Positions 9,711-63,967 of a stretch of 64,000 nt of DNA are shown one piece after another (position 1 is the stretch's first letter; every line of letters starts with the position of its first letter). The notes beneath the pieces are model-generated. The model had not been told where the DNA came from. It did no database searches and saw nothing but the letters and a program-made list of their open reading frames with translations. Source of the DNA: a virus; the IMG/VR virus record IMGVR_UViG_3300045988_139374, positions 96,001 to 160,000 of that record, one strand, 5' to 3'. Position numbers and translations under genes: made by a program.

Positions 9711-9726
9711 CATAGTTATAATATCT
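9711..9726 (-). promoter_or_regulatory. Promoter-like 16-mer AGATATTATAACTATG (site a)
   Basis: Complement of 9711-9726. About 54 nt upstream of the 9657 start and on the same strand as that gene. Confidence 0.45.
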
Positions 9727-11007: not shown

Positions 11008-11476
11008 CTAAATTTTTACCTCCATCCATCTTAAGCATCCCAATTAGGGCATCTAAGAATTTATTCTGTATAGATATTGTTGTACCCACATTAAAATCTA
11101 ATAATGTAAAAGGTTTAATAATAATATTTGTTTTATTACTTTCTCCTTCTACGCTTAATTGACATGGATAGTTGTAAGTATTTTCATAGCATCCTACACT
11201 TACAATGTTTCCATCTTGATTATATTTAGATTTAAATATAAGAGAAGTAATTAATTTATACATGGATTCAGATTCCATTTTTATAGTTACCACTTCTCCT
11301 CCAAGTAAATCCAATATAGTAATCATATGGACATAAGTAGAGATAAACCTTCTTTCAGGATGTTCAGGATCATAGTCATAATCCGAAATCTTAGATGAAA
11401 GATAGACCTTGTGATCAAAAGTCCATTCTCCAATTTTATTGATTACCTGGTCTATTAAACTCCCGATATTTTCCAT
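10994..11476 (-). CDS. Hypothetical protein
   Basis: ORF track. The start overlaps the 3' end of the RNase H gene by 41 nt. Confidence 0.6.
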   Translation of the reverse strand: MENIGSLIDQVINKIGEWTFDHKVYLSSKISDYDYDPEHPERRFISTYVHMITILDLLGGEVVTIKMESESMYKLITSLIFKSKYNQDGNIVSVGCYENTYNYPCQLSVEGESNKTNIIIKPFTLLDFNVGTTISIQNKFLDALIGMLKMDGGKNLDDYV

Positions 11477-12185
11477 TCCTGTTCACCAAACTTAAATACT
11501 CATTCATATTGAATCTAGAATAGTCAAAACGTACTGCAAGTTTACCACTAGTAGTACAATCCCTATTTTCAATATAGGATTTAATAAATGTAGTAGAATA
11601 ATTATCTACTGTATTATTGCACATAGCGATAAAATAAGCTAGTTCATTAGTGATGTCTTCTCCAATAAATGGATTACTTCTAACAAACATTTCTTTAGCA
11701 TGTTCTAGAGCCGGAATATCTTTAATATTTACATGACCTTTTACATGATAAAACTCAAGTGGAATCTGATTAGCCAAAATAGTATAGATAATATCCATAT
11801 AGTAATTCTGATTTTTGATTCTACCTTTAGGTCCTAAAACATTTCCATAGTTATTTGTATCAATTACCCATCTATAGAGCCATTCTCTAATACCAATAAT
11901 AGCATTCTGATTATCTCCAAAGATCTTAATTCTATATCCTTTATACTTAACAGCTGCCTGCACTCCTAATAGAAGTGCATACAATTCTCCTTGCTGTGAA
12001 GTAGAGTTTAAAAGAATTGTCGCACCTTGCTCAATACACATATCGTTATGATAAACACAATATGCTGGAGCTGTATATGGAACATTAATGCCTTTAGAGA
12101 AATCTGGATTCTGTGATGAGGCATCTGTAAAAATACAGATAGTCTCATCATTAAAAAATTCTTCTTTAGTAGCGATTTTATACAC
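11436..12185 (-). CDS. rnhA: RNase HI-like ribonuclease H
   Basis: The catalytic D-E-D-H-D pattern appears in order: IFTDAS, GELYAL, IFGDNQ, HVKGHV. GTG start directly after an in-frame TGA, with AAAGGAA upstream. Confidence 0.7.
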   Translation of the reverse strand: MYKIATKEEFFNDETICIFTDASSQNPDFSKGINVPYTAPAYCVYHNDMCIEQGATILLNSTSQQGELYALLLGVQAAVKYKGYRIKIFGDNQNAIIGIREWLYRWVIDTNNYGNVLGPKGRIKNQNYYMDIIYTILANQIPLEFYHVKGHVNIKDIPALEHAKEMFVRSNPFIGEDITNELAYFIAMCNNTVDNYSTTFIKSYIENRDCTTSGKLAVRFDYSRFNMNEYLSLVNRNGKYREFNRPGNQ

Positions 12186-12245
12186 TATTCATCACCATTC
12201 CTTTCTTTATAAGTATATTGAAGAAATAATAAATCTTAACTTCTT

Positions 12246-12261
12246 CAATATTATAATATCT
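12246..12261 (-). promoter_or_regulatory. Promoter-like 16-mer AGATATTATAATATTG (site b)
   Basis: Complement of 12246-12261. It lies directly downstream of the terminator at 12282-12305 and about 61 nt upstream of the RNase H start. Confidence 0.45.
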
Positions 12262-12281
12262 GATTATAATAAAAATTAAAA

Positions 12282-12305
12282 CCCAAGAGGATTACTCCTC
12301 TTGGG
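12282..12305 (-). terminator. Intrinsic terminator closing the cassette array
   Basis: Stem CCCAAGAGGA/TCCTCTTGGG with loop TTAC. A T-run follows on the minus strand. Confidence 0.7.
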
Positions 12306-12312
12306 ATAATTA

Positions 12313-12636
12313 TTATCTAGGAATACAGAGCATTTTCCATTTAATAGTCATGTTTGTAGTACTAACCAATTTATATCCATTATCATAATTTCCAAGTTTC
12401 CATACGTAAAACATTTGCATTGTATCATATGGAAAATCATTACTTGGTGTTGTAGATATGAATGATAATCCTGGATATATATCATATGGGATTGCCCACA
12501 TTGATAATACCCAATATTTATACACATCTAGATCTCCAGAGTACGATCCATTATAATCATGCCCATTTAAAGTTATAAGTTGTGTGGTAGATGTAGAAAC
12601 TGTTGTAAGGTTCTTCACTTTAATAGAAGCGTCAGA
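12313..12636 (-). other. Cassette 1: open frame of 107 codons beginning SDASIKVKNL directly after a TAG; no ATG or SD
   Basis: The frame opens at 12636, right after TAG (12639-12637). The track ORF (12313..12618) relies on an internal GTG with no SD. It is in the same frame as cassette 2, separated by TAA-TTA-AAA-TAG. Confidence 0.5.
12624..12634 (-). repeat. Junction 11-mer TGACGCTTCTA, copy 1
   Basis: Exact 11-mer on the minus strand at the first codons of cassette 1. Confidence 0.9.
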
Positions 12637-12645
12637 CTATTTTAA

Positions 12646-13089
12646 TTATTTATTCACCCAATGATCTATATTATTCATATCATCATTATAAGTACTATTA
12701 TCTTTAATATACCAAAATTTGCATATAATAGGATTATTATAATCACGATATACTGATGTAGCAGAAATTGTTTCATCTATTGATAGATAAATACGACACC
12801 CATTATACATACCATAATATTTACTAAGTCCAAGGTCTGTTAATTCATCTCCTGGAAAAATAATCGCTGTATACCTATATAAGCTACTAACATTTCCAGC
12901 TATTTCTTTAATGGCATAACAAGGATATGCTTGTAAAACAACTATTGTATTTCTTAGCTGTGCATAATATTTTGTGGATGACTGTGGGATCTTGCACGTT
13001 CCACTTTCAATCTTAGAAGCGTCATACTCATTAAACATAGATAATATTTGCATGGTATGAAGTATCATAAGATGATGATGTACCATCAC
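12646..13089 (-). other. Cassette 2: open frame containing YDASKIESGT; possible weak start MFNEYDAS at 13038, no SD
   Basis: Track ORF with a GTG/ATG start at 13089/13086 that overlaps the end of cassette 3 in another frame. The only SD-like GGAG sits 2 nt from the ATG, which is too close. Confidence 0.5.
13014..13024 (-). repeat. Junction 11-mer TGACGCTTCTA, copy 2
   Basis: Exact 11-mer on the minus strand. Confidence 0.9.
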
Positions 13090-13255
13090 TCCAATGTTTT
13101 ATCCATCTACAATATAATTTTCCTTTATTTTGATAAACCCAGTCTGCATCATGGCTTACATCATCTAATATATCAAATCCTATCAATGTACCATTTAATG
13201 TATATCCATCTTTAGTAATATAAATATTACTAAGCTTCTTTATAGAAGCGTCAAA
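13031..13255 (-). other. Cassette 3: 74-codon open frame FDASIKKLSNIYITKDGYTLNG... opening directly after TGA-TAA; no start codon or SD
   Basis: Hand translation of the complement of 13255-13031. Below the ORF-track size cut-off. Preceded by the terminator at 13274-13303. Confidence 0.45.
13243..13253 (-). repeat. Junction 11-mer TGACGCTTCTA, copy 3
   Basis: Exact 11-mer on the minus strand. Confidence 0.9.
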
Positions 13256-13273
13256 TTATCAAAAAAAAAATAA

Positions 13274-13303
13274 AATGAGTGAAGATTTTATTCTTCACTC
13301 ATT
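13274..13303 (-). terminator. Intrinsic terminator after the 13311..13868 gene
   Basis: Stem AATGAGTGAAGA/TCTTCACTCATT with a 6-nt loop. On the minus strand it is followed by a run of 10 T (13270-13261). Confidence 0.75.
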
Positions 13304-13310
13304 CTTTCAG

Positions 13311-13868
13311 TTATTTCTGAATGTCGGTGTATCTTGTAAATATATCGTATGCTCTATGAATAAGATTGGTATATTGTCCTTTAAAACTAAGATCATATAA
13401 TTCATGAATAACATCTGTTCCGATAATATTCATATCTTTATCGTACCTAATAATATTAATATTAGGTATAGTATTTATCGAAAACTGATATCCATATTTA
13501 GCTTTATACATATCTGTATTGAAAATAAGGTTGTTAAACTGTCCATTGCACACATCCATACATGGAATAACATTTACATCTACATCTTTTTTACCTGCTC
13601 TCATAGTATAGCTAGTATTAGGCGAAGCTATTCTAATATAACCATCAACAGAAACTCGAATATATCCATCTAATTTAAATTTATCACCATTTACATGGCA
13701 TAATACATATAAAATATTTCCTTTAATACGTTGAAAAGCTACTTCATCTTTATAATCTCTATTTCCAATAGGAATATTTTTTGGAATGATTGTTCCTAAA
13801 TCTCCATAGGTGAAAAAATCATTATTTTCACAATTAATTTCAGCGGTCAATGCACTAGTAATACCCAT
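13311..13868 (-). CDS. Hypothetical protein (185 aa), possibly the expressed member of the cassette locus
   Basis: ORF track; GAAAGGAAAA upstream of the ATG, and promoter-like site c upstream. The N-terminus MGITSALTAEIN contains TTGACCGCTG (13850-13841), a degenerate relative of the junction motif. Confidence 0.7.
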   Translation of the reverse strand: MGITSALTAEINCENNDFFTYGDLGTIIPKNIPIGNRDYKDEVAFQRIKGNILYVLCHVNGDKFKLDGYIRVSVDGYIRIASPNTSYTMRAGKKDVDVNVIPCMDVCNGQFNNLIFNTDMYKAKYGYQFSINTIPNINIIRYDKDMNIIGTDVIHELYDLSFKGQYTNLIHRAYDIFTRYTDIQK

Positions 13869-13922
13869 AATTCATTTTCCTTTCTGTTATGAAATAATTA
13901 TTATGAATAGATATTTTCTATT

Positions 13923-13938
13923 CATATTTATAATATCT
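13923..13938 (-). promoter_or_regulatory. Promoter-like 16-mer AGATATTATAAATATG (site c)
   Basis: Complement of 13923-13938. Directly downstream of the terminator at 13954-13980 and about 55 nt upstream of the 13868 start. Confidence 0.45.
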
Positions 13939-13953
13939 AATTAAAACAAAATT

Positions 13954-13980
13954 TCCGGTAGAGATTAAATCTCTACCGGA
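13954..13980 (-). terminator. Intrinsic terminator after the 13988..14764 gene
   Basis: Stem TCCGGTAGAGAT/ATCTCTACCGGA with loop TAA, followed by a T-rich tract on the minus strand. Near-identical to the hairpin at 24989-25015. Confidence 0.75.
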
Positions 13981-13987
13981 TTTATTT

Positions 13988-14764
13988 TTAAACTGTCATG
14001 ATTAGAGGAATACTCTTATTATTAGCACTAACGTAATTAGATTCAAGATAATCAATTACATTATCTCTCTTACTAGCTTCATTCTCAAGATTTCCAATCT
14101 TAAGATCTAGAGTTGAAAATACTGTTTCCAATCCATCCCAATATTTTAAGTTATTAGAGAGGAAAGCTGCAACGTCAGCTTGAGCTAATTGTTCAAACTT
14201 TTCCATTGCAGTAGCAGGAATACTAGTAAGAGAATCTAAATGCTTTAGCAGAAGAATGATATTAAATTCTCCAATTGATACATCATAGTTGCCAGTTGCA
14301 ACTAGACGAATTCTATTAGGAGGTTCAAATTCAGGAATGATCTGATTACTAAACATAGAAGCATAATCAGCTCTTCCTTTCATTCCTAGGATATCATCCA
14401 TAGTAAAGTTTGCTGCTAGACCAGCATCTATAGTGCCATATCCAAAAGTTTGTGCAAGTCCAATAGATCTATTTCCATATTTGGTCCAATCTATATCTCC
14501 TACACCAAGAATAGTTTGCCCACCAATGAAATCTTCATTGATATAATACCAGCCTTCTTTTTTAGGAGCTGTTTGCTCATTAATCTTAAAAGAAAGCTTT
14601 CTAGGACAATATCTAGAATATGTAGTAAGAGAATCTTCTTTAATAACATTTGCCCAAGCATCTTTTCCAAATTCTGCAGGCAAATGCTTAGTAAGAGGAA
14701 TAAGTCCTAATCTCCACTCAATTTTATCTACCAATTTTGCAATATTATTTTGATATCCAGCCAT
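13988..14764 (-). CDS. Hypothetical protein (likely virion-module gene by position)
   Basis: ORF track. It follows the stop of the 14772 gene by 7 nt, downstream of the protease-like gene. Confidence 0.65.
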   Translation of the reverse strand: MAGYQNNIAKLVDKIEWRLGLIPLTKHLPAEFGKDAWANVIKEDSLTTYSRYCPRKLSFKINEQTAPKKEGWYYINEDFIGGQTILGVGDIDWTKYGNRSIGLAQTFGYGTIDAGLAANFTMDDILGMKGRADYASMFSNQIIPEFEPPNRIRLVATGNYDVSIGEFNIILLLKHLDSLTSIPATAMEKFEQLAQADVAAFLSNNLKYWDGLETVFSTLDLKIGNLENEASKRDNVIDYLESNYVSANNKSIPLIMTV

Positions 14765-18911: not shown

Positions 18912-21900
18912 ATGGTCGTACTTGAAGATCTTAAAGATTTGCTTATGTATAAGAAGCAATTCTTCCTTCCTGTGAATATGAAGGATAAACGTCATGGATC
19001 TGCAATCATGCTCATGACCCCAAATTATCAGTCATCTATGCTAGCAATGACTGAACCTTATACACTAAATAGACGTACCTTTGAGTCTTATTATATCGAA
19101 AAAACTATTACAAGATATATTCAACAACAGACTGAATCTGTTGTTGAAATTACTGATCCTGGTGAGTATCTTTTTGAAGTTGAATTGACTTCTAAAGAGA
19201 GAAAAGAACTTGATGATAGTGAATTCGGCATTCCTGAACAAAGAAGATATCCTCTGAATGATGAATCTCATGTACTAGCTGCTATTAGATTCTTTAATCA
19301 TGTAGAAAAGGAATATGAAGCAGAACTTGCTAAGAATATCATTAAAAAGATTAAAGAATATGATATGGCTGACAAAGTTCATGTAGGAGATGGAAATAGA
19401 TTTAAGCCCTATTGGGAAAAATCTGGGCTTGCTAATAAATCTACTAATGAATCTGGTCAAATTGTTAAATCTGCTCCTGATCCTGAGGAATATAAGAAAA
19501 CTCTTATTAATGCAGTAAAGGATACTCTTCATCTTAAGGGATATAAATGTGGAATTCATAAAGATGATAGATGGGGTACTGATGAATTTATCAATGGTGT
19601 GAATTCTCTTTATATTGGCAGATATGATGATACAGAAATTAAAGATGTAGTCAATCAAATCAAAGCTGTTATTGGTCCTGGATATAAAGTATGTGAAGAC
19701 GATTTTAATACTGTCTTTATTGATGGTCCTAATAAAGCAATGAGAGAATTCACTGAAGATGAATATTTCAATGAGTTTAATATTAAGAGCTTTATTAGTG
19801 GTACTGCTATATCTTCTGCTAATAAGAAGATGAATAAGGATTATCGTCTTCTAACCTTTACTGGATATGAAAGAGATATCAATGTTGTGCAGAAGTATAT
19901 TGATCAAGAATATATTAAGGCATGCATGGCAAAAGTCAAACAAAAGATGCCTTATGATAAGATCAATATTATTTGCTGTGGTGATGGATCTAAGCCTGAA
20001 GAATTTACTCCTACTTCTGTTCTGGTATATACTCCTGAGGCTTTTAAACATGCCGGTGGAAAGTTTGGATATGGAGACTATATTAAATATATTCTCCAGC
20101 TATATGCAGTTTATTGCATCAAGATGCCTATTGGAAGCAAATATGAAAGAGTTCTAGATAGTCTTGCAGAACCTGCTGCTATTCTATTTTCTGGAGTTGC
20201 AGCAAAAGAAATTGCTAAGAAAACTAATGATGATCAATTTACTGTAGAACGAGTATTCCAATATATTATTGATAAAGATGGCATTGATACACTACTTAAA
20301 ATTCTCAGATACAATGCAACTGCTGCTGTTATGAAATATGCAGCAGAATATGGAAAGATTTATTATCCTATTAATAGATCTCTCTTTGTAGAAATAGCTG
20401 AAGAGAATGAAGAATATCTAAAATCTCTTCAAGAAGATACTACTATTCCTGTTCCTAATCCTATGCCTGATAGTATTAGAAAGCTTGGAAATACTGCAGA
20501 ACGCATTAAGAGAAGGCTTAAGTCTAAGACTATTTATAAGCTTAATAAACTTAAAAGAGATCTTGAAAAAGGAACTGGAGATTCTGATAATCCTGGATAC
20601 ACTATTCAAAGTCTTGATGTAGGTATTCCTACTCCTTCTAATGGATCTTCTGCTCCTAGTGAATCTTTCAGTCTTTCTAAACTGAATCTCTGGTCTCAAG
20701 GAGATTATGTAAATGAAAATGGATTTGTATATCTATTTGAAGATTCTACAAAATATGATATGCAACTTCGTAAAGCTCTTTATAGAGATAGATTGAAAAA
20801 TGATAAAGCTGTTATTCAGCTATATAAGAAGGTAAAAGCTGATATGCCTATCATCAGATATACCTTTGTTAAAATGAATAGATACAATAACCGTAATCTA
20901 TTCTATGATCTATCTTATTACAATGAGTCTTTCTTTAGAAATATGGCTATGATCAATGATAGTGATCGTAAAAATATTATGAGACTCTTTAAAACCTATA
21001 TTGAGCTTATGGAACGTCTACTAAATGATGATTCTCTAAGTGGATATTCTAAGAAAACTGTTTTTATCCCTGTACTAGATTGGAGACATAATAACTCTCT
21101 AAAGATGTGGATGTATAAAGAGGATATTAATCCTATTTCTGCCATCTATTATTATATGAGAAATAATCCTAAAGAACTCTCTAAACTATTTGGAGATAAA
21201 GACGTTGTTTTTCTTGGAGCTAAAAATTACTTCAAAGTAAACTTTGCTAAGGATGATTTTAGTAAGAGTGGAAATGTAACTAAATTCCTAAATCTTATTA
21301 AAAGAATTGTAGCCCTTGGGTATAATTCTCCTGCAGATCCTGATCCTGAAGGTGAGCTTGAAGATTCTCCTAAGGGAATTGCTATGGCTATCATTGATAA
21401 GGTTGAACAATCTAAAAATGTTCAAATCAATGATATCTCTAAACTAGATAATCTTTCTAATGATCAGAATCTTTATAATGATCAACCTGCAAAGGCAAGT
21501 ATGATTCCTGATGAAACTGCTGTGAAAAAGAAAGTAGTAGATACTGCATATAAAGTATCTGATGATGTGGTCACTACTACTTATGCAACAAATGTCAAAA
21601 ATAAGGTTGTTAAAGTTTCTGTAGATAGAAAGACTGTTACTAAAGAAGAGAATAAAGCAGCCACTGGAGTATCTGGTACCAAATCTGTAAATAGTACTTC
21701 TTCTAAAGAAAAGAAGGATGCTATTGTTGACTCTGTTGCTCAGGCAGCAAGAAATTCTGACAGTGTAGATACTGCTATGAATAAACTTGATGACGATCAG
21801 CAGTTTAAAGATATGGTCAATGCTATTCAGAATGATGATGAAGAGAATGTCAGAGTTGATAAGTCTCAAGCATCTGCTGTTATTGCTAAGCAAGAAGAAT

Positions 21901-24900
21901 TTCATAAGAAAGACGTTGAAGGAAAATCTGTTCAGGATCTTCTAAATGTGGATACCGCAGAAAAAGAATTGCCTGAAACTAAGTTAAAAGTATCTTCTAT
22001 CAATGACGATTGGCAACATATGACTTTCATGAACTTTGATAAAGATTATGATCCTGATAGTGATATTGTAAAGATGCTCGATGCTATGCAGCATTGGACT
22101 TATCCTATTGCTGTTACAAATGTTAGTGTTAAAGATAATTCTACATCTGAAGACATTGTAAATCTATGGACCATTGAATGTATAGATTATAAGAAAACTA
22201 AGTTTACACTTAAGGTTGATATTCCTAAATTTATCAATGGATCCAACTTCCTAAAACTCCGTGGCAATGAAAAGACACTGATGATTCAATCTGCACTTCT
22301 ACCCATTATCAAAACTGGTTTGGGAGAGTGCCAAATTATTGGTTCTGGCGGATATAACAAGATCTTTGTCAGAAGATTTGGTTCTCGTAAGGGTCAATCT
22401 AATGCCTATGCTAATAAACTCATTAGAGCTATTAGCAAGTATTGTGATAAGCATGATGATATTAAGTATGTAGCTGGTGATAATACTAAGGTTTGTACTA
22501 AATATGAATTGCCTATCGACTATATTGACCTTGCCCAAGTATTTAACTCTATTGAATCTGCTGGTCTAAAGATTTTCTTTAATCAAGATGAACTTAGATC
22601 TGAATATGAAGTGGATGATACTAAGGGCATTCCTATTGGTGTATTTACTCAATTTGATTCTAAGGATAAGACTGGTAAGGATGTAATCATTTACTATGAC
22701 GGAACTTCTAGTCCTACTCTAGCTGGTTATATCACTACTTTGCTATTTTATAGATCTCAGGAGTTTATGGAATTCTATAATAGTCTAAAGATTACTGGTA
22801 CTCGCTGTACTTATTCTAAGGCTAGTATTTTGAATTGTGAGATTCCTGTTATTCTAATTTGCTCTTATCTTGAGGGTCTGATTAAGACCATGAATAAGGC
22901 TGGAATTAAGTATGAATTCGTACAAGAGCTAAATAAGGATATCAAATATAGTACTTATCAGGATTATATTGAATTCTCTGATGGCTATCTTGTATATGAA
23001 GCAAATTACTCTTCTAGCATGCTTATGAATGGTCTTAAGGAAAATGATACTTCTTCTTATTCCATCAAGGATGTAAATAATAGAAGAATGTATCTAGAGT
23101 TCCTTGAGACTTATACTAATAGTCTAAATTCTGATGGTCTAGAAAACTCTTATGACTGTATGATTGATCCTATTACTAAGGAAATTCTTGAGAGATTCAA
23201 GCTTCCTAGTGATTACGTTGGTATTCTAATCCATGCAAGTAATATGCTTGCAGATAATAAGTACATACGTCATATCGATCAAGGTGGTCGTAGATGGCGT
23301 CGTAAAGAACTTATCGCAGGTTACTTCTATAAAGCTCTTACTACTTCTTATCAGGATTATGCTAACCAGAATCGTCATACTCGTAAGAGAACAAAGATGA
23401 CGATTAAGCAATCTGCTGTTATCGATCTAATTGTTTCTAAAGACCCTGCTACCTCTGACCTTTCTATTAACAATGCTCTAAATGACGTTGAATGCTCAAA
23501 CTCTGTTACTAACAAAGGTCTAGTTGGTATGAATGTTGCTCGTGGTTATACTATTGCTACACGTGGATATGATGATTCTATGCTTAATCTATTAGGCATG
23601 GATACTGGATTCTCTGGCAATGTTGGTATTAATCGTCAAGCAACTGTTAATGCTAATATTGAAGGTGGAAGAGGATTTGTTAAAACTATTGATGGTAATA
23701 CAGATAAATTGTCTTCTGCTGCTTCTTTTACTATGACAGAAGCTGTTACTCCTCTTGGTACTACTCATGATGATCCTCCTAGATCTCTGATGACTTATGT
23801 CCAGACTTCTAAGCACATGATTCGTTGTGATAATAACGATCCTACTCTACTTACTACTGGTGCGGATGAAGCATTGCCTTATCTGACTTCTGATATCTTT
23901 GCTTATAAAGCTAAGGAAGATGGTAAGATTGTAGAATTGGTACAAGAAGGTTTTGGTAAGAGAAACTATATCGTTGTAGAATATAAGAGTGGTAAACATG
24001 AATTTATCAATCTTTCTGAAGAGGTTAAGAAAAACTCTGATGGTGGATATTATGTGCCTATGAAACTTGATACAGATATGAGTGTTGGTAAGACTTTCAA
24101 AGCTGGTCAAATTCTTGCATATGATAAGCTATCTTTCTCTAAATCTCTTGGCGAATCTGGTAATCTAGCTGCTAATATGGGCACTCTTGCAAAGATTGCT
24201 ATTATTAATACTGATGAAGGATTCGAAGACTCTGCAATGATTACTGAATCTTTTGCCAATAAACTAGGAACTCAAGTTATTCAAGGAATTGAAACTAGAC
24301 TAGAGAAAGGTTCTAATATTCAGGTTAGTAAATATCTTGGAGATCAAGTTATGGAAGGTGATACTCTATTCACTTTCCAAGCTGACTTTGATGACGAAGC
24401 TATGAATAGCCTGCTCAAGAATCTAGCAATGGATGCTGGTGAAATTTCTGAATTGGGCAGAAATCCTGTTAAATCTAAATATACTGGTATCGTATGTGAT
24501 ATTCAAATCTATCGTACATGCGATATTGATACTTGCTCCGAATCTCTACGTAAATTCATTGGACTTTATGAGAAGAGAGTTAAAGATATCAAAAAAGTAT
24601 ATGATCAGTACGGAATTGATTCTGCCATTCTTCCTAAGACTGGTAAAGTTCCTGAAGTTGGCAAAACTAAAAATCTAGATGATTCTGTTCTAGTAATCTA
24701 TTATATCAAATATACAGATACTATGTCTGCTGGTGATAAGATTACTTTCTATTCTGCAAATAAGGGTATCATTAAGAAGATTATTCCTAAGGATGTAGAA
24801 CCTTATACTGCTTTCAGACCTAATGAGCATATTGATAGTTTCATGTCTCTAAGCTCTATCTCTGGACGTATGACTTGTTCTATTCCTCTATTTGCAGCAA

Positions 24901-24977
24901 CTTCTAAACTTATGGTAGAATTGGATAGATCCGTTAAAGATCTAGCTGGAATTCCTTACGACGAGAGTCAATTGTAA
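18912..24977 (+). CDS. Giant 2021-aa protein: about 1000-aa N-terminal extension fused to a multisubunit RNA polymerase beta-subunit-like region that ends shortly after the GDK...NKG motif
   Basis: AAGGAGG upstream of the ATG. Near residue 1520, SINNALNDV...RGYDDSMLNLLGMDTGFSGNVGINRQ aligns by eye with the E. coli beta segment NNPLSE...[28 protein letters not shown]. Near residue 1940, SAGDKITFYSANKGIIKKIIPKDVEPY...RM aligns with [25 protein letters not shown]...SRM. Confidence 0.75.
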   Translation: MVVLEDLKDLLMYKKQFFLPVNMKDKRHGSAIMLMTPNYQSSMLAMTEPYTLNRRTFESYYIEKTITRYIQQQTESVVEITDPGEYLFEVELTSKERKELDDSEFGIPEQRRYPLNDESHVLAAIRFFNHVEKEYEAELAKNIIKKIKEYDMADKVHVGDGNRFKPYWEKSGLANKSTNESGQIVKSAPDPEEYKKTLINAVKDTLHLKGYKCGIHKDDRWGTDEFINGVNSLYIGRYDDTEIKDVVNQIKAVIGPGYKVCEDDFNTVFIDGPNKAMREFTEDEYFNEFNIKSFISGTAISSANKKMNKDYRLLTFTGYERDINVVQKYIDQEYIKACMAKVKQKMPYDKINIICCGDGSKPEEFTPTSVLVYTPEAFKHAGGKFGYGDYIKYILQLYAVYCIKMPIGSKYERVLDSLAEPAAILFSGVAAKEIAKKTNDDQFTVERVFQYIIDKDGIDTLLKILRYNATAAVMKYAAEYGKIYYPINRSLFVEIAEENEEYLKSLQEDTTIPVPNPMPDSIRKLGNTAERIKRRLKSKTIYKLNKLKRDLEKGTGDSDNPGYTIQSLDVGIPTPSNGSSAPSESFSLSKLNLWSQGDYVNENGFVYLFEDSTKYDMQLRKALYRDRLKNDKAVIQLYKKVKADMPIIRYTFVKMNRYNNRNLFYDLSYYNESFFRNMAMINDSDRKNIMRLFKTYIELMERLLNDDSLSGYSKKTVFIPVLDWRHNNSLKMWMYKEDINPISAIYYYMRNNPKELSKLFGDKDVVFLGAKNYFKVNFAKDDFSKSGNVTKFLNLIKRIVALGYNSPADPDPEGELEDSPKGIAMAIIDKVEQSKNVQINDISKLDNLSNDQNLYNDQPAKASMIPDETAVKKKVVDTAYKVSDDVVTTTYATNVKNKVVKVSVDRKTVTKEENKAATGVSGTKSVNSTSSKEKKDAIVDSVAQAARNSDSVDTAMNKLDDDQQFKDMVNAIQNDDEENVRVDKSQASAVIAKQEEFHKKDVEGKSVQDLLNVDTAEKELPETKLKVSSINDDWQHMTFMNFDKDYDPDSDIVKMLDAMQHWTYPIAVTNVSVKDNSTSEDIVNLWTIECIDYKKTKFTLKVDIPKFINGSNFLKLRGNEKTLMIQSALLPIIKTGLGECQIIGSGGYNKIFVRRFGSRKGQSNAYANKLIRAISKYCDKHDDIKYVAGDNTKVCTKYELPIDYIDLAQVFNSIESAGLKIFFNQDELRSEYEVDDTKGIPIGVFTQFDSKDKTGKDVIIYYDGTSSPTLAGYITTLLFYRSQEFMEFYNSLKITGTRCTYSKASILNCEIPVILICSYLEGLIKTMNKAGIKYEFVQELNKDIKYSTYQDYIEFSDGYLVYEANYSSSMLMNGLKENDTSSYSIKDVNNRRMYLEFLETYTNSLNSDGLENSYDCMIDPITKEILERFKLPSDYVGILIHASNMLADNKYIRHIDQGGRRWRRKELIAGYFYKALTTSYQDYANQNRHTRKRTKMTIKQSAVIDLIVSKDPATSDLSINNALNDVECSNSVTNKGLVGMNVARGYTIATRGYDDSMLNLLGMDTGFSGNVGINRQATVNANIEGGRGFVKTIDGNTDKLSSAASFTMTEAVTPLGTTHDDPPRSLMTYVQTSKHMIRCDNNDPTLLTTGADEALPYLTSDIFAYKAKEDGKIVELVQEGFGKRNYIVVEYKSGKHEFINLSEEVKKNSDGGYYVPMKLDTDMSVGKTFKAGQILAYDKLSFSKSLGESGNLAANMGTLAKIAIINTDEGFEDSAMITESFANKLGTQVIQGIETRLEKGSNIQVSKYLGDQVMEGDTLFTFQADFDDEAMNSLLKNLAMDAGEISELGRNPVKSKYTGIVCDIQIYRTCDIDTCSESLRKFIGLYEKRVKDIKKVYDQYGIDSAILPKTGKVPEVGKTKNLDDSVLVIYYIKYTDTMSAGDKITFYSANKGIIKKIIPKDVEPYTAFRPNEHIDSFMSLSSISGRMTCSIPLFAATSKLMVELDRSVKDLAGIPYDESQL

Positions 24978-24988
24978 AAAAAATAAAT

Positions 24989-25015
24989 CCCGGTAGAGAT
25001 TAACTCTCTACCGGG
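24989..25015. terminator. Bidirectional terminator between convergent genes
   Basis: Stem CCCGGTAGAGA/TCTCTACCGGG with a 5-nt loop. An A-run lies upstream and T-rich sequence downstream. Confidence 0.75.
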
Positions 25016-34622: not shown

Positions 34623-35327
34623 ATGGAAGAGATGACTAATTATCAATCTCTTCAGGAGCTATTCGTAGATAAAGAAACTCAAGAACTCATTAAGAAATGG
34701 AAAATGTCTAATGAGAAGCAAAAGAAGGAAGTATTTAAATCTACACTTTCTGATGCTGAATATCAGAAGTTGGCTCCTATCTTTAAAACTCTTAAAGAAG
34801 AAACAGAAAACTATGCTCCTTACTATAAAGCATTTAAAGCTCTCTGCAAATTCTGCCATATCGTTCCTAATGGAACTATTATTACTAAATATAAACTTAA
34901 GAAGGGTAAAAAGGAAGATGATAGCATTATTCTAGTAGAATATACCTATAATGCTAAGCCTATTACTCTTCCTGCTGGAACTAAACTTTATCATCAGTCT
35001 GTTGTTGCTGGTATTAAAGAACTTATTCCTAAGTGGAAACTTCGTGGTAAGAGTGAGAATGGATATCTTTGTGAAGCTCCTAGGATTTATCTTACTATGA
35101 GTAAATCTCTACCTACAATTAGTACTGATAATAAATTTATGAGCAAAATGCATACTTATGAAGTGCTACGACAGCCTACAAAGGTTTATATTGATCCTCT
35201 ACTTCCTGATGTATTCCAAAAGGCTGTTTATGTAGAAACTGTTACTCCAATTCCTGTTAAGGAAATCGAAAAGGAGTCTCTAGTTAAGAAAGCTTCTGAT
35301 GCTGTAAAGAAAACTATTCTGAAATAA
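34623..35327 (+). CDS. Hypothetical protein carrying the same C-terminal domain as 32692..34602
   Basis: GAAAGGAG upstream. ITLPAGTKLYHQSVVAGIKELIPKWK...VYIDP...VYVETVTPIPVKE. Confidence 0.7.
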   Translation: MEEMTNYQSLQELFVDKETQELIKKWKMSNEKQKKEVFKSTLSDAEYQKLAPIFKTLKEETENYAPYYKAFKALCKFCHIVPNGTIITKYKLKKGKKEDDSIILVEYTYNAKPITLPAGTKLYHQSVVAGIKELIPKWKLRGKSENGYLCEAPRIYLTMSKSLPTISTDNKFMSKMHTYEVLRQPTKVYIDPLLPDVFQKAVYVETVTPIPVKEIEKESLVKKASDAVKKTILK

Positions 35328-49557: not shown

Positions 49558-49573
49558 AGATATTATAAATATG
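49558..49573 (+). promoter_or_regulatory. Promoter-like 16-mer AGATATTATAAATATG (site e)
   Basis: Identical to site c. Lies 43 nt upstream of the ATG at 49616, on the same strand. Confidence 0.45.
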
Positions 49574-59819: not shown

Positions 59820-62189
59820 ATGGCCGAAGTAATTCGTCAAAATACAGCTCATAAGCAGTATATCGAAGATCTGGCTCTATATACTATTGCAACTAACTTG
59901 GTTCGTGCATTACCTGATGTGCGAGATGGATTGAAACCTGTTGCAAGACGTATTCTTTATACTCTTATGAATGATGAGAAAGCTATCGATCCTGCTCATC
60001 AGGTTAAGTCTGCTGCAGTAGAAGGTACCGTTATGAAGAAATATCATCCTCATAGTGGAACTTATCCTACGTTCAAGACTATGGTAAACTGGTTTGAAAT
60101 TAAACAACCTATGATGATCGGACAAGGATCATTTGGTACAGTTTCTGGTGAAGTAGCATCTGCACAAAGATATACTGAGTGTTGCCTTAGTCCTTTTGGT
60201 CTTGAATGTGTTTGTGGAGCATTGTTCAATAGCAATGAAGTTGTTGACTGGAATCCCACTTATGATAATAAGAACTATGAACCTCAGTATCTTCCAGTGA
60301 AAGTTCCTCTGCTTCTTATTAACGGTATTCTTGGTGGTATTGGTACTGGTATCAAAGCAGATCTTCCTTCTCATAATATGGGAGAGGTTATCGATGCTAC
60401 ACTAAGATTGATTGATGATCCTAAAGCAGATGTAATTCTGATTCCTGATCATTGCTTACCTTGTGAAATCATTGATACTGATTGGAAAAATATCTGTAAT
60501 AAAGGATATGGATCTTATCGTGCTAGAGCAACTATGAGTGTTTCTCATGATAAGAATGATTATCCTTATATTACGATTACCTCTCTTCCTATATATGGCA
60601 CTAATAATGTCGTAAATAAGATTGATGAAGGAATTGCAGCAGGTAAATTTCCTCAGATTCTTGATGTCAACGATGAATCTAAGAATGACTATGGTGTAAG
60701 AATCGTCATCAAGTTGAAAAAGGGTACTGACGTAAACTTCGTTAAAGAAGCTCTATATAAGTATACTCCTTGCGAGCAATCTTTTAGAGTTAACTTTGAA
60801 GCGGTCTATGGTACTGAGCTGGTTCGTCTGTCTTATAAGGAATATTTGAATCTGTTTATTAGATTTACTACTGATAATAAGATTAAAGAATATTCTGCGA
60901 GACATTATGTAATCTCTACCAGATTGCATAAGTTGGATGCATTCATCAAGATTGTAGGATCTCCTGATATTGATAAGATTATTAATCTTATCAAGAAAGG
61001 AAAAGCTAGTTCTGATAATGAATTAATTGAGCTTTTGATTAGTAAATATAAGCTGACCGATATTCAGGCATCTTATATTATCAATGCTCAGCTTAAGCAG
61101 CTATCTAAATCTTATCTTGATAGATATAAGGCAGACTTTAAGAAACTAAGTGAAGAAGAAACATGGCTAGAAGGTAGAATTGCTAATAATAATCTTATTC
61201 TTCAAGATGTTAAGGATGAACTGATTGCTATTAGAAATAAATATGCTACTCCTAGATTGTGTAAAGTTATTAAGGTTAGTAATCTTGGAAATATCCCTGA
61301 AGGAACATTCAAGTTTGTTATTACTGAAAACAATTATGTCCGTAAGATTGGTGAGAATGAAAATGTGAATGTAATTAAGGGAGATAGACCTAAGTTTATT
61401 ATGACTGTAAGTAACTTGGAGAATATTCTTCTCTTTGATAATAAGGGAAGAGTATTTAAACTTCCGATTCACAAGATTCCCATCATGGCAAAGAATGATC
61501 CTGGCATTGATGTCAAGGGTATTATTAAAGGATTGACTGCTGATATTATTTCTGTACTTTATGAGCCTATGGTTATTAAACTTGCAGCTTTAAAACAGAA
61601 AGTATATGTTGCAATTCTATCTAAGAATAATACTATTAAGAAACTTGATATTCAGGATTTCCTTAATGTACCTCCTTCTGGTATCATCTATTCTAAGATT
61701 ACTCAGGATGATGATATCGTAGATACTCAGCTTGTATCTGATAATATGGATCTGGTTCTATATAGTGACACGAAAGCTCTAAGAATTGCTTCTACGGATA
61801 TTACTCTTCTTAAACGTAACACTATCGGAACTCTGGGAATGGGAGGACAGCATGGACCCATGGAAGGAATGAGTATTATCTATACAGATAAGAAAAATCC
61901 TTCTAAGTATATTCTTGTCATTACTGAATCTGGTAAGGTTAATAAATTCTCTGCTAGTGGATTTGAAAGAAGTCAAAGAAATAAAGCTGGTAGTAAAGTT
62001 ATTGATCTTGCTAGAGGTGACCGTATTAAGACTATCTTTGGAGTTTCTGATAATAATGTTTTGAATATCGTTACTACAGGAACTAATTATAGTCTGCCGA
62101 TTTCTGAGATGCAGATGATGAGTTCTGTAAGCAAGGGAATTAAGGTTACTGGTAAGAATGAGATTGTTGTAAGAGCTACGATTTCCTAA
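59820..62189 (+). CDS. gyrA: Type IIA DNA topoisomerase subunit A (GyrA/ParC-like)
   Basis: VRDGLKPVARRILYTL, KKYHPHSGTY, and the catalytic-Tyr context SAQRYTECCL (compare AMRYTE). Full length, with a C-terminal repeat region. Confidence 0.85.
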   Translation: MAEVIRQNTAHKQYIEDLALYTIATNLVRALPDVRDGLKPVARRILYTLMNDEKAIDPAHQVKSAAVEGTVMKKYHPHSGTYPTFKTMVNWFEIKQPMMIGQGSFGTVSGEVASAQRYTECCLSPFGLECVCGALFNSNEVVDWNPTYDNKNYEPQYLPVKVPLLLINGILGGIGTGIKADLPSHNMGEVIDATLRLIDDPKADVILIPDHCLPCEIIDTDWKNICNKGYGSYRARATMSVSHDKNDYPYITITSLPIYGTNNVVNKIDEGIAAGKFPQILDVNDESKNDYGVRIVIKLKKGTDVNFVKEALYKYTPCEQSFRVNFEAVYGTELVRLSYKEYLNLFIRFTTDNKIKEYSARHYVISTRLHKLDAFIKIVGSPDIDKIINLIKKGKASSDNELIELLISKYKLTDIQASYIINAQLKQLSKSYLDRYKADFKKLSEEETWLEGRIANNNLILQDVKDELIAIRNKYATPRLCKVIKVSNLGNIPEGTFKFVITENNYVRKIGENENVNVIKGDRPKFIMTVSNLENILLFDNKGRVFKLPIHKIPIMAKNDPGIDVKGIIKGLTADIISVLYEPMVIKLAALKQKVYVAILSKNNTIKKLDIQDFLNVPPSGIIYSKITQDDDIVDTQLVSDNMDLVLYSDTKALRIASTDITLLKRNTIGTLGMGGQHGPMEGMSIIYTDKKNPSKYILVITESGKVNKFSASGFERSQRNKAGSKVIDLARGDRIKTIFGVSDNNVLNIVTTGTNYSLPISEMQMMSSVSKGIKVTGKNEIVVRATIS

Positions 62190-62977: not shown

Positions 62978-63967
62978 ATGACAAATGTAGAGATGATCTT
63001 AAAATTAATGGAACCAGAGCTCGATACTATTCAACTAGCTAAATTGAAGAACGTGCTTGACACAATCTTAAGAACATCAAGAAACGTCCTACCAAATGAA
63101 GAATTGATAGAACGATTCAAACAACAGAAGAGCTTAGTAGGATTGAAACCATCTTCATTAAATGGATATGTAACAGAGGTTAGAGCAATGGCAAGATACT
63201 ATAATGATAAAAGCTATTGCGATATTACTACTGCTGATATGAAGGATTATCTTGCTTATATGGTTAAAGCAAGAAATCTTCAAGCTGCTACATTACAGAC
63301 TAAGATTAGAGCTATTAGCTCTTTCTATGAATTCTTAGTAAATGAAGAATTTATTGATAAGAATCCTACTAATAAGATTGAAAGAGTCTTGTGTGAAAAG
63401 AAGATCAAGAAAGCTTTCTCTAATGCTGAGATGGATGCTATGAGAGCAGAATGCTTAACAAAGAGAGATAGAGCATTCTTTGAGTTCCTTTATTCTACTG
63501 GAACTAGACTTGCAGAAGTCATTGCCCTTAATGTAAAGGATATCAATTTCTCAGAAGGAGAAGTTATTGTCTTCGGTAAAGGACATAAGGAAAGAGTTGT
63601 TTATCTAAGTAACATTTGCATGAAATATTTACAAGAATACTTAGAAGAACGATATGCTCAACCAGATGAACCTTTATTTACACACTTGACAAATGGTCAT
63701 AGATTGACTCCTAGAGCAGCAGAATTAATTCTTAAAGATATTGGCGATAGAGTAGGAGTAGAAAATGTGCATCCTCACCGATTCCGTAGAACTTGTGCTA
63801 CTCACTTGATGGACAGAGGAATGCCTGTTGAACAGATTCGAGAAGTACTCGGTCACGCCAAGTTAGAGACTACTATGATTTATTGTAATGTGAATAGCAG
63901 TAAAGTTAAAGCTAGTTTTAAAGAAGCATTTAATAGAGATACATATTTTAATGATGTAAATATTTGA
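62978..63967 (+). CDS. Tyrosine site-specific recombinase (XerC/XerD/phage integrase family)
   Basis: YSTGTRLAEVIAL (catalytic Arg), HPHRFRRTCATHL (H-x-x-R), LGHAKLETTMIYCNV (catalytic Tyr). N-terminal SAM-like core-binding domain. Confidence 0.85.
   Translation: MTNVEMILKLMEPELDTIQLAKLKNVLDTILRTSRNVLPNEELIERFKQQKSLVGLKPSSLNGYVTEVRAMARYYNDKSYCDITTADMKDYLAYMVKARNLQAATLQTKIRAISSFYEFLVNEEFIDKNPTNKIERVLCEKKIKKAFSNAEMDAMRAECLTKRDRAFFEFLYSTGTRLAEVIALNVKDINFSEGEVIVFGKGHKERVVYLSNICMKYLQEYLEERYAQPDEPLFTHLTNGHRLTPRAAELILKDIGDRVGVENVHPHRFRRTCATHLMDRGMPVEQIREVLGHAKLETTMIYCNVNSSKVKASFKEAFNRDTYFNDVNI

Follow-up and report, generated by a model that had tools for sequence, protein, structure and literature searches.

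An invariant, frame-locked box heads mobile cassettes of small open reading frames without conventional starts in AR9-type gut jumbo phages

A stretch of viral DNA of 64,000 nucleotides (positions 96,001 to 160,000 of the IMG/VR record IMGVR_UViG_3300045988_139374, hereafter the window) contains on its minus strand an array of three open reading frames (ORFs) that have no conventional start and that each open with the same 11-mer, TGACGCTTCTA, which we call the start box or simply the box. They belong to a mobile system of ORFan cassettes in which the 5′ box is obligatory, constrained at the nucleotide level and locked to one reading frame, and is also a recombination boundary. We give about even odds (a probability near 0.5) to the reading that the cassettes are stand-alone small genes whose box serves both as an unconventional signal for expression or translation start and as a recombination linker. 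A narrower proposal, that a box of about 20 nucleotides is a self-contained initiation signal that takes the place of Shine-Dalgarno (SD) sequence and start codon and is read by the ribosome or by a phage-encoded factor or RNA, is offered more tentatively, with a lower though still substantial chance of being right.

The 11-mer occurs exactly three times in the window, always on the minus strand, and in all three copies the long ORF reads it as x-GAC-GCT-TCT. With up to one mismatch allowed there are seven matches where 0.85 are expected, and none of 100 shuffles reached seven. The four one-mismatch copies (31901, 39461, 44864 and 52485) lie within ordinary long ORFs or in closed frames and look like chance occurrences. 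A preliminary description of this DNA had reported the three copies and their common codon phase as more than chance, and these and most of its other observations on the array are borne out. Cassettes 1 and 3 have no start and follow directly on in-frame stops, one codon 5′ of GAC (TGA-TAA-TTT-GAC and TAG-TCT-GAC). Cassette 2 has an ATG four codons upstream (13038-13036), but it is SD-less and arises where the C-terminal codons of cassette 1 are read out of frame. In blastp the products of the three cassettes form no common cluster. The hairpins that border the array on either side are both detected, among six terminator-like sites in the array region where 0.9 are expected. Cassette 1, of the family that we call W-C1, has orthologues in L054, L085, L243 and L244, and cassette 2 has a 99% orthologue on the human-gut contig L244 and no other relative that we found. 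In the W-C1 family the box may pair with the codons that follow it (13243-13220, minus strand) as GCUUCU-AUAA-AGAAGC, a 6-bp hairpin that is specific to this family and not general.

The preliminary description had suggested a search of related genomes for the motif, and this showed that in sister genomes about 50 distinct ORFs, 68-306 codons long, begin with the box, all of them open behind it in one shared frame in DNA of about 32% G+C. The ORFs come from four IMG/VR genomes and from ENA and Logan contigs, and the numbers counted range from 35 to 58 (48, 53 or 58 in the larger sets) according to which loci are included and how duplicates are removed. They lie at many loci and on both strands, some in divergent back-to-back pairs 24-27 nt apart, and their arrays hold one to six cassettes. 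One ENA contig carries at least 12 cassettes in 20 kb. Pattern scans of IMG/VR returned mostly chance 14-mers, but also many further loci within the four related genomes. No analogous box was seen in 20-kb samples of the more distant relatives L005-L011, and matches to the motif in the literature were limited to primers.

The box is obligatory for cassette ORFs, being exact in 59 of 60 ORF segments homologous to cassette bodies, and what is constrained is its nucleotide sequence. The position profile of 35 instances reads A(-4) R(-3) T(-2) C(-1) TGACGCT(T/A)CT A NN AA R, beyond which the upstream DNA is merely A/T-rich, and the first residues encoded are x-Asp-Ala-Ser-x-Lys. All 41 DASxK-headed ORFs use GAC-GCT-TCT, with no synonymous variant; in ordinary genes 14% of Asp codons are GAC, and the joint chance is 0.035 per independent cassette. 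The conserved A(-4) and T(-2) lie 5′ of the ORF, on the far side of the in-frame stop, and a constraint on the peptide alone is therefore insufficient.

The single exception to the exact box is the orthologue in L242 of cassette 3 (family W-C3), a stand-alone ORF whose own ATG was gained through an ATGA overlap with the stop of the preceding cassette; its box reads TGACACTTCT. In L002, L249 and L250, small canonical genes with a good SD and an ATG precede the array and carry, in frame and four codons after the ATG, the sequence TAACACTTCT, which is the start box with both Gs changed to A. These genes (L002 10980; L249 2434; L250 722) encode 69-75 aa, begin M-x-T-I-N-T-S-I and may be related or ancestral to the cassette head. 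The sample is small, but it suggests that an exact box is required just where a conventional start is absent.

Conventional starts are indeed rare. Among 48 cassettes the median distance into the ORF of the first in-frame ATG, GTG or TTG is 34 codons; a canonical start within eight codons is found in two, and five ORFs (73-107 codons) contain no such codon at all. A full SD stands before the first in-frame start in 1 of the 48, compared with 42 of 59 ordinary genes of the window. A hidden canonical start was rejected, as no consistent ATG, GTG, TTG or SD lies near the box. The database proteins that cover cassettes have N-terminal extensions (MFNEY-, MKLS-, MVVVQELVLKIIMQILFIFNE- and others) that vary from copy to copy and are translated upstream DNA, either the preceding cassette read in a wrong frame or a T-run. 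Ordinary homologues with normal starts, which the preliminary description had named as the sign of mere decayed paralogues, are represented by one orthologue with its own ATG (in L242, likewise in L246), the extensions of the other homologues being junk read-through. Over cassette arrays gene callers leave gaps of several kb, or call truncated or artefactually extended proteins (L243 4154-7412 and 9722-11340).

Sequence and structure modelling nevertheless indicate that the cassette ORFs are protein-coding. Every one is intact and has its own stop codon, and blastp divides them into at least ten unrelated families of 68-306 aa, with paralogous families of 16, 4, 3, 3, 2, 2 and 2 members plus singletons. 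The ratio of nonsynonymous to synonymous polymorphism (pN/pS) is 0.37 between W-C1 and its orthologue L054_513. The AlphaFold2 model of W-C1 (predicted local distance difference test score, pLDDT, 94) is a complete all-beta domain of 74 residues, whose first strand starts at residue 6, directly after the tail encoded by the box; Foldseek searches of PDB and BFVD gave it no significant neighbour and no match to a receptor-binding tip. The W-C3 model was unusable (pLDDT 38). No family in Pfam, PHROGs, NCBIfam or PADLOC was found for any cassette or for the 185-aa gene upstream of the window array, and no distant homologue with a normal N-terminus among 1.8 billion representatives or in deposited phages. 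Two matches to cellular genomes, actinobacterial proteases, were rejected as chance. The codon usage of cassette bodies compares with that of ordinary genes as ATA 5.4% versus 1.4%, ATC 0.6% versus 2.2% and ATG 1.7% versus 2.6% (p=2e-5).

The box is also the 5′ boundary for gain, loss and re-assortment of whole cassettes between genomes. With the 258-aa gene to the left of the array as query we retrieved 12 IMG/VR loci, and compared ten versions of the locus between this virion structural gene and the RNase H-like gene to the right. In the closest relatives the flanks are 97% identical (on the RNase H side, in L001 and L002) and the stretch between the two genes differs: the window has three cassettes, L004 three different ones, L001 one and L002 none. 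The L002 deletion has its joint between two copies of TAATC, one preceding the box and the other within the terminal hairpin's loop. The W-C3 family supplies the final cassette of the locus in eight genomes, with five different sequences directly 5′ of its box, and in the database orthologue P0001 the end of cassette 1 is joined straight to cassette 3. From the varying content, the changing partners of W-C3 and the P0001 joint it follows that cassettes are gained, lost and re-assorted as units with the box as their 5′ edge. Within arrays, in the window and elsewhere, the boxes are direct repeats; 0-25 nt separate the stop of a cassette from the next box, with no conserved 3′ element or hairpin.

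An array typically starts 51-61 nt past the stop of an arbitrary, unrelated gene, in the order hairpin, T-run, (G)ATAATC, box. At least 13 arrays other than that of the window share this layout from gene stop to box, and the genes 5′ of arrays are ordinary and mutually unrelated. The stem-loop and T-run stand before the first cassette of most arrays; internal cassettes have no hairpin. Terminator loops in this phage tend to finish in AATC, the four bases that precede the start box, and one terminator hairpin (GGTAGAGATT...AATCTCTACC) is repeated at no fewer than four sites (13954-13980, ~24989-25004, ~35101-35116 and ~60908-60923).

A promoter-like box (AGATATTATAA...), the 16-mer that the preliminary description had placed outside the array, does stand on both sides of it (13938 and 12261) and is absent within. 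In its intergenic form, AGATATTATAAnnnTG, it is found at these two sites and at 9726 and 28193 on the minus strand and at 49558, 53778 and 63970 on the plus strand, in each case 29-116 nt before an SD and start. The early promoter of phage AR9, used by the virion RNA polymerase (RNAP), is AAATATATATTAT-N6-G(+1), given also as ATATTAT-N6-G+1 (PMC5312081). The AGATATTATAAnnnTG box shares this architecture, and its function as a promoter here is putative. In three arrays the predicted +1 G of an early-type promoter box lies 23-26 nt before the start box, a spacing that would put the start box within the 5′ portion of an early transcript, the usual place of a translation-initiation region. The array region shows no enrichment of sigma-70-like sites (21 against 28 expected), and the position profile has no -35/-10 pair.

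A cassette is a unit of start box (A-R-T-C-TGACGCT[T/A]CT-A-NN-AAR), complete small ORF with the box as its first codons, and stop, and arrays stand directly behind the hairpin and T-run of arbitrary genes or about 25 nt after an early-type promoter. In the mechanism that we propose, the box would occupy the position in the mRNA that is normal for SD and start codon, and would direct non-canonical initiation at or beside the GAC codon, either independently of a start codon or with the help of a phage factor. The identity of its sequence would double as homology for cassette shuffling, as do the promoter-early stem-loop (PeSL) modules of T4-type phages, and the cassette products would probably be early accessory proteins, for host takeover or anti-defence.

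Several points weigh against initiation at the box. We know of no bacterial or phage initiation that does without both an AUG-like codon and an SD, and the hosts of AR9-like phages are Firmicutes, with strong SD dependence. Most arrays sit behind terminator-like hairpins. Pairing of the box with 16S rRNA did not exceed that of shuffled controls, no anti-box RNA was found in 237 kb of related DNA, and no conserved local RNA structure was found at the box. A special tRNA was rejected as well, the tRNAs of the window being Gly-UCC, Gln-UUG and Thr-UGU alone, none of them unusual. In two of three orthologue pairs pN/pS is near 1. Finally, the argument that the box decays where an ATG is present draws on one orthologue and one small gene family, and it is weakened by the W-C3 orthologue in L246, which has the same ATG as that of L242 and an intact box.

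A conserved AGAAACGTCAGG within a 509-aa gene (window 8912, minus strand; L001 15020; L002 14649; L242 9725) is a 10/12 complement of the box core, probably by chance within coding sequence. Other routes into the cassette frame were tried and rejected. A start at an NTG overlapping the box (CTG, ATG or TTG, -1 to +1) followed by a frameshift would enter a frame in which every 'CTATAAAG' cassette has a TAA stop, and no slippery site is present. For a prfB-like +1 shift at AUC-UGA-C there is no upstream ORF, and the codon before the TGA is unconserved and sometimes itself a stop. Bypassing of the type of T4 gene 60 does not fit upstream genes and final codons that are unrelated, or internal and divergent cassettes that have no such gene. 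Against reassignment of a stop codon, all three stops are found just 5′ of the box and ordinary ORFs are intact in genetic code 11.

The preliminary description took the three frames for silent, alternative C-terminal modules of a receptor-binding or other variable protein. What stands of this is a modular, frame-locked nucleic-acid signal with recombination at the shared junction; what is not supported is the joining of C-terminal modules to an expressed 5′ segment. Stated more generally, the cassettes would be 5′-truncated donors, expressed after recombination at the box with a gene that provides promoter, SD, ATG and N-terminal part. The missing SD and start codon, the frequent position behind terminators and the box as recombination joint would all suit such donors, and the in-frame TAACACTTCT of the canonical genes, four codons past the ATG, has the geometry expected of an expression site. 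However, the box-like sequence of those genes has decayed and is therefore poor homology for recombination. No long ORF with an internal DA[ST]xK, at a domain boundary or otherwise, that could be the acceptor was found in 237 kb of related DNA including the whole window, a search that took in parts of the genomes. About 45 assembled database homologues show no fusion to a genuine N-terminal domain, although rare variants would escape assembly. Some 50 ORFs in so many unrelated families and sizes, scattered over many loci and both strands, each intact with its own stop, some behind an early-type promoter and the arrays behind genes unrelated to each other, do not look like alternative ends of one protein, and the self-contained beta domain of W-C1 speaks against a receptor-binding identity. 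The degenerate relative of the box reported from the 185-aa gene, TTGACCGCTG at 13850-13841, is present, but its alignment needs an indel and the 195-aa orthologue in L242 has TTTATTTCTG instead; for these two reasons we treat it as chance. We consider silent donors unlikely.

Silent cassettes are familiar from antigenic variation at Neisseria pilE/pilS and Borrelia vlsE/vls, where, as here, ORF segments without promoter, ribosome binding site (RBS) or start codon have a short conserved border sequence. Here, however, the expression locus was not found in the 237 kb, and the cassettes encode unrelated proteins of very different sizes with their own stops, on both strands of a lytic-type jumbo phage. 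Invertible and shufflon switching (Mu Gin, P1 Cin, R64 Rci) likewise alternates coding segments, whose short conserved border always has the same codon phase. It needs flanking inverted repeats, a constant 5′ gene part and an adjacent invertase, whereas the repeats of the arrays are direct and a constant part is absent.

It is similarly improbable, in our judgement, that the box acts in transcription, as a promoter or activator site recognised by one of the phage's own RNAPs or by a phage factor, with weak translation from AUA, AUU, GUG or UUG a few codons downstream. AR9-like phages do have compact, unusual promoters, and also self-splicing introns (PMC5312081). The box comes after terminators, as a promoter might, divergent cassettes 24-27 nt apart resemble divergent transcription units, and the third codon after the box is ATT, ATA, GTG or TTG in 18 of 35 cassettes. 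Yet about half of the cassettes lack such a start-like codon, some for at least ten codons; frame and spacing are invariant, whereas a promoter need not be frame-locked; three arrays already carry an early-type promoter 5′ of the box; and the box itself occurs at no other gene of the window. Identity with the AR9 late promoter, whose consensus is AACA-N6-TA/G (PMC5312081), was rejected, as the box does not match it.

We think it rather less probable that the box is a recombination linker only, an N-terminal targeting peptide or both, its identity kept by recombination while initiation is inefficient and near-cognate. The shuffling joints do lie at the box, and diverse small proteins with about six first residues in common recall the internal proteins of T-even phages, which have only a capsid-targeting sequence (CTS) in common (PMC3012670). 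In both cases the proteins are small accessory ones from hypervariable loci that share a short N-terminal segment, here x-DAS-x-K, and the window array lies near prohead protease genes, the prohead protease being two genes away. Most arrays, however, lie away from head genes. Genes for T-even internal proteins start normally, with an ordinary RBS and ATG that are absent here, their products are packaged after the prohead protease has acted on the CTS or lose it to that enzyme, and their conservation is at the level of the peptide, whereas that of the box is at the nucleotide level, tolerates no synonymous variant (41 of 41) and reaches 5′ of the ORF. Moreover, 11-15 identical bases are short for homogenisation by homologous recombination alone.

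Joining at the level of RNA, in which a leader with SD and AUG would be attached at the box by trans-splicing, cut-and-ligate or template switching, is less probable again. An invariant sequence that stands in a fixed frame where many ORFs begin does resemble a 3′ acceptor site, and the self-splicing introns of AR9-like phages are in its favour. Nevertheless, a search for introns and ribozymes with Rfam gave the three tRNAs alone at gathering threshold in the window and noise in a permissive scan of 11300-14200, and neither a leader-type copy of the box nor a complementary guide was found in the related DNA examined. We know of no phage precedent for RNA-level leader joining.

That the cassettes are pseudogenes in decay or remnants of paralogues, whose 11-mer goes back to a shared ancestor, is strongly disfavoured: the absent start codons, the two pairs with pN/pS of about 1 and the odd usage of ATA would fit, but all 48-58 ORFs are intact over their 68-306 codons despite the AT-rich DNA, families are kept across many samples, the box is invariant where bodies have diverged past recognition, and W-C1 has a confident fold.

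By analogy, the behaviour of the cassettes is closest to that of PeSLs, which are mobile regulatory cassettes of T4-type phages (Arbiol et al. 2010, PMC2839356; Comeau et al. 2014, PMC4122927). Both are short conserved intergenic modules beside small ORFans, in hypervariable regions and in dozens of copies per genome; at the head of most arrays, as in PeSLs, the order is upstream stop, AT-rich tract, stem-loop terminator, conserved signal and ORFan; and in both, near-identical genomes differ by insertion, deletion or replacement of whole ORFans with joints inside the module. They differ in that a PeSL has a sigma-70-type -35/-10 promoter and ends in Shine-Dalgarno and ATG, of which the cassettes have none, while the conserved element here is frame-locked and overlaps the first five codons, and the stem-loop precedes only the first cassette of an array.

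Integrons too hold promoterless single-ORF cassettes in one orientation, some without a translation-initiation region of their own, with content that differs between close relatives. An integron-like system was rejected, as attC and IntI are both absent. The 3′ ends of cassettes have no imperfect inverted repeat of the attC type, no IntI lies by the arrays, and the sole recombinase of the window, a Xer-like one about 50 kb off, scores under the IntI cut-off. The conserved element here is instead 5′ and coding, and each genome has many arrays behind arbitrary terminators.

The coordinates of the array and of features around it are given in Table 1.

Table 1. The window array and other features of the window
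Feature	Position	Strand	Remarks
Start box copy 1, TGACGCTTCTA	13243..13253	-	Exact match; core of extended signal 13257-13238
Start box copy 2	13014..13024	-	Exact match
Start box copy 3	12624..12634	-	Exact match
Cassette 1 ORF, W-C1 family	13031..13255	-	F-DASIKKLSN..., 73 codons from GAC, stop 13033-13031
Cassette 2 ORF	12646..13026	-	Y-DASKIESG..., 125 codons from GAC
Cassette 3 ORF, W-C3 family	12313..12636	-	S-DASIKVKNLTT..., 106 codons from GAC
Hairpin and T10 run	13261..13305	-	14-bp hairpin after 185-aa gene; usual left border of array
GATAATT linker	13254..13260	-	Holds conserved A(-4) R(-3) T(-2) of extended signal, by position profile
Terminal hairpin	12282..12305	-	Closes array; conserved in L001, L004, L242
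Early-promoter-like box AGATATTAT-AAATAT-G	13923..13938	-	Before 185-aa gene
Early-promoter-like box AGATATTAT-AATATT-G	12246..12261	-	Before RNase H gene; right boundary of variable locus
RNase H-like gene	11436..12185	-	Pfam RNase_H E=1e-8; conserved right flank of variable locus
258-aa virion structural protein gene	13988..14764	-	phrog_18911; conserved left flank; 12 related loci
185-aa gene, ordinary, SD and ATG	13311..13868	-	Upstream of array, outside cassette family
Xer-like tyrosine recombinase	62978..63967	+	Phage_integrase E=4e-39

The neighbours of the array are a prohead protease (Peptidase_S77/S80), the virion structural protein and the RNase H-like protein, and the rest of the window has genes for a 2021-aa RNAP beta-like protein, gyrase A/B-like proteins, DnaB-like and Dda-like helicases, a Xer-like tyrosine recombinase and three tRNAs. 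The best matches of the prohead protease in deposited phages are to Bacillus phages AR9, PBS1 and Goe21 and to Staphylococcus and Listeria jumbo phages, at 27-29% identity; no deposited phage matches the window at the nucleotide level, and human gut metagenomes are the source of contigs that share its array. On these grounds of sequence the phage is an uncultured jumbo phage of the human gut, distantly of AR9 type.

The 185-aa gene is replaced by an unrelated gene of 71-75 aa in L001, L002, L004 and L249. The RNase H-like protein has about 95 additional C-terminal residues without a family match, and the 'DAS' in its active-site region, IFTDAS, is coincidental. The RNAP beta-like protein is a single ORF (18912-24977, plus strand), with RNAP beta-subunit families over residues ~650-2010 and DUF6582 at the N-terminus; AR9-type phages usually have split RNAP subunits. 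The Xer-like recombinase has XerA, XerC and XerD as its top model matches, all under cut-off, and scores 100 bits with the integron-integrase model against a cut-off of 265. It adjoins the gyrase-like genes, in what is apparently a lytic AR9-type jumbo phage, and is also kept in L243; at about 50 kb from the array, no evidence was found that connects it to the cassettes.

Gene callers miss or truncate nearly all cassette ORFs, so that current databases do not show dozens of genes per genome; multi-kb stretches of L243 that appear 'empty' are filled with cassettes. Even without new initiation, this is a previously undescribed cassette-shuffling system, with rapid turnover of accessory genes in abundant jumbo phages of the human gut. 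If the box drives expression, it would represent start-codon-independent or factor-dependent initiation in a bacterial virus, and would provide a new rule for gene finding and possibly an orthogonal expression tool. A clade of gut jumbo phages would then have a private initiation channel for its mobile early accessory genes.

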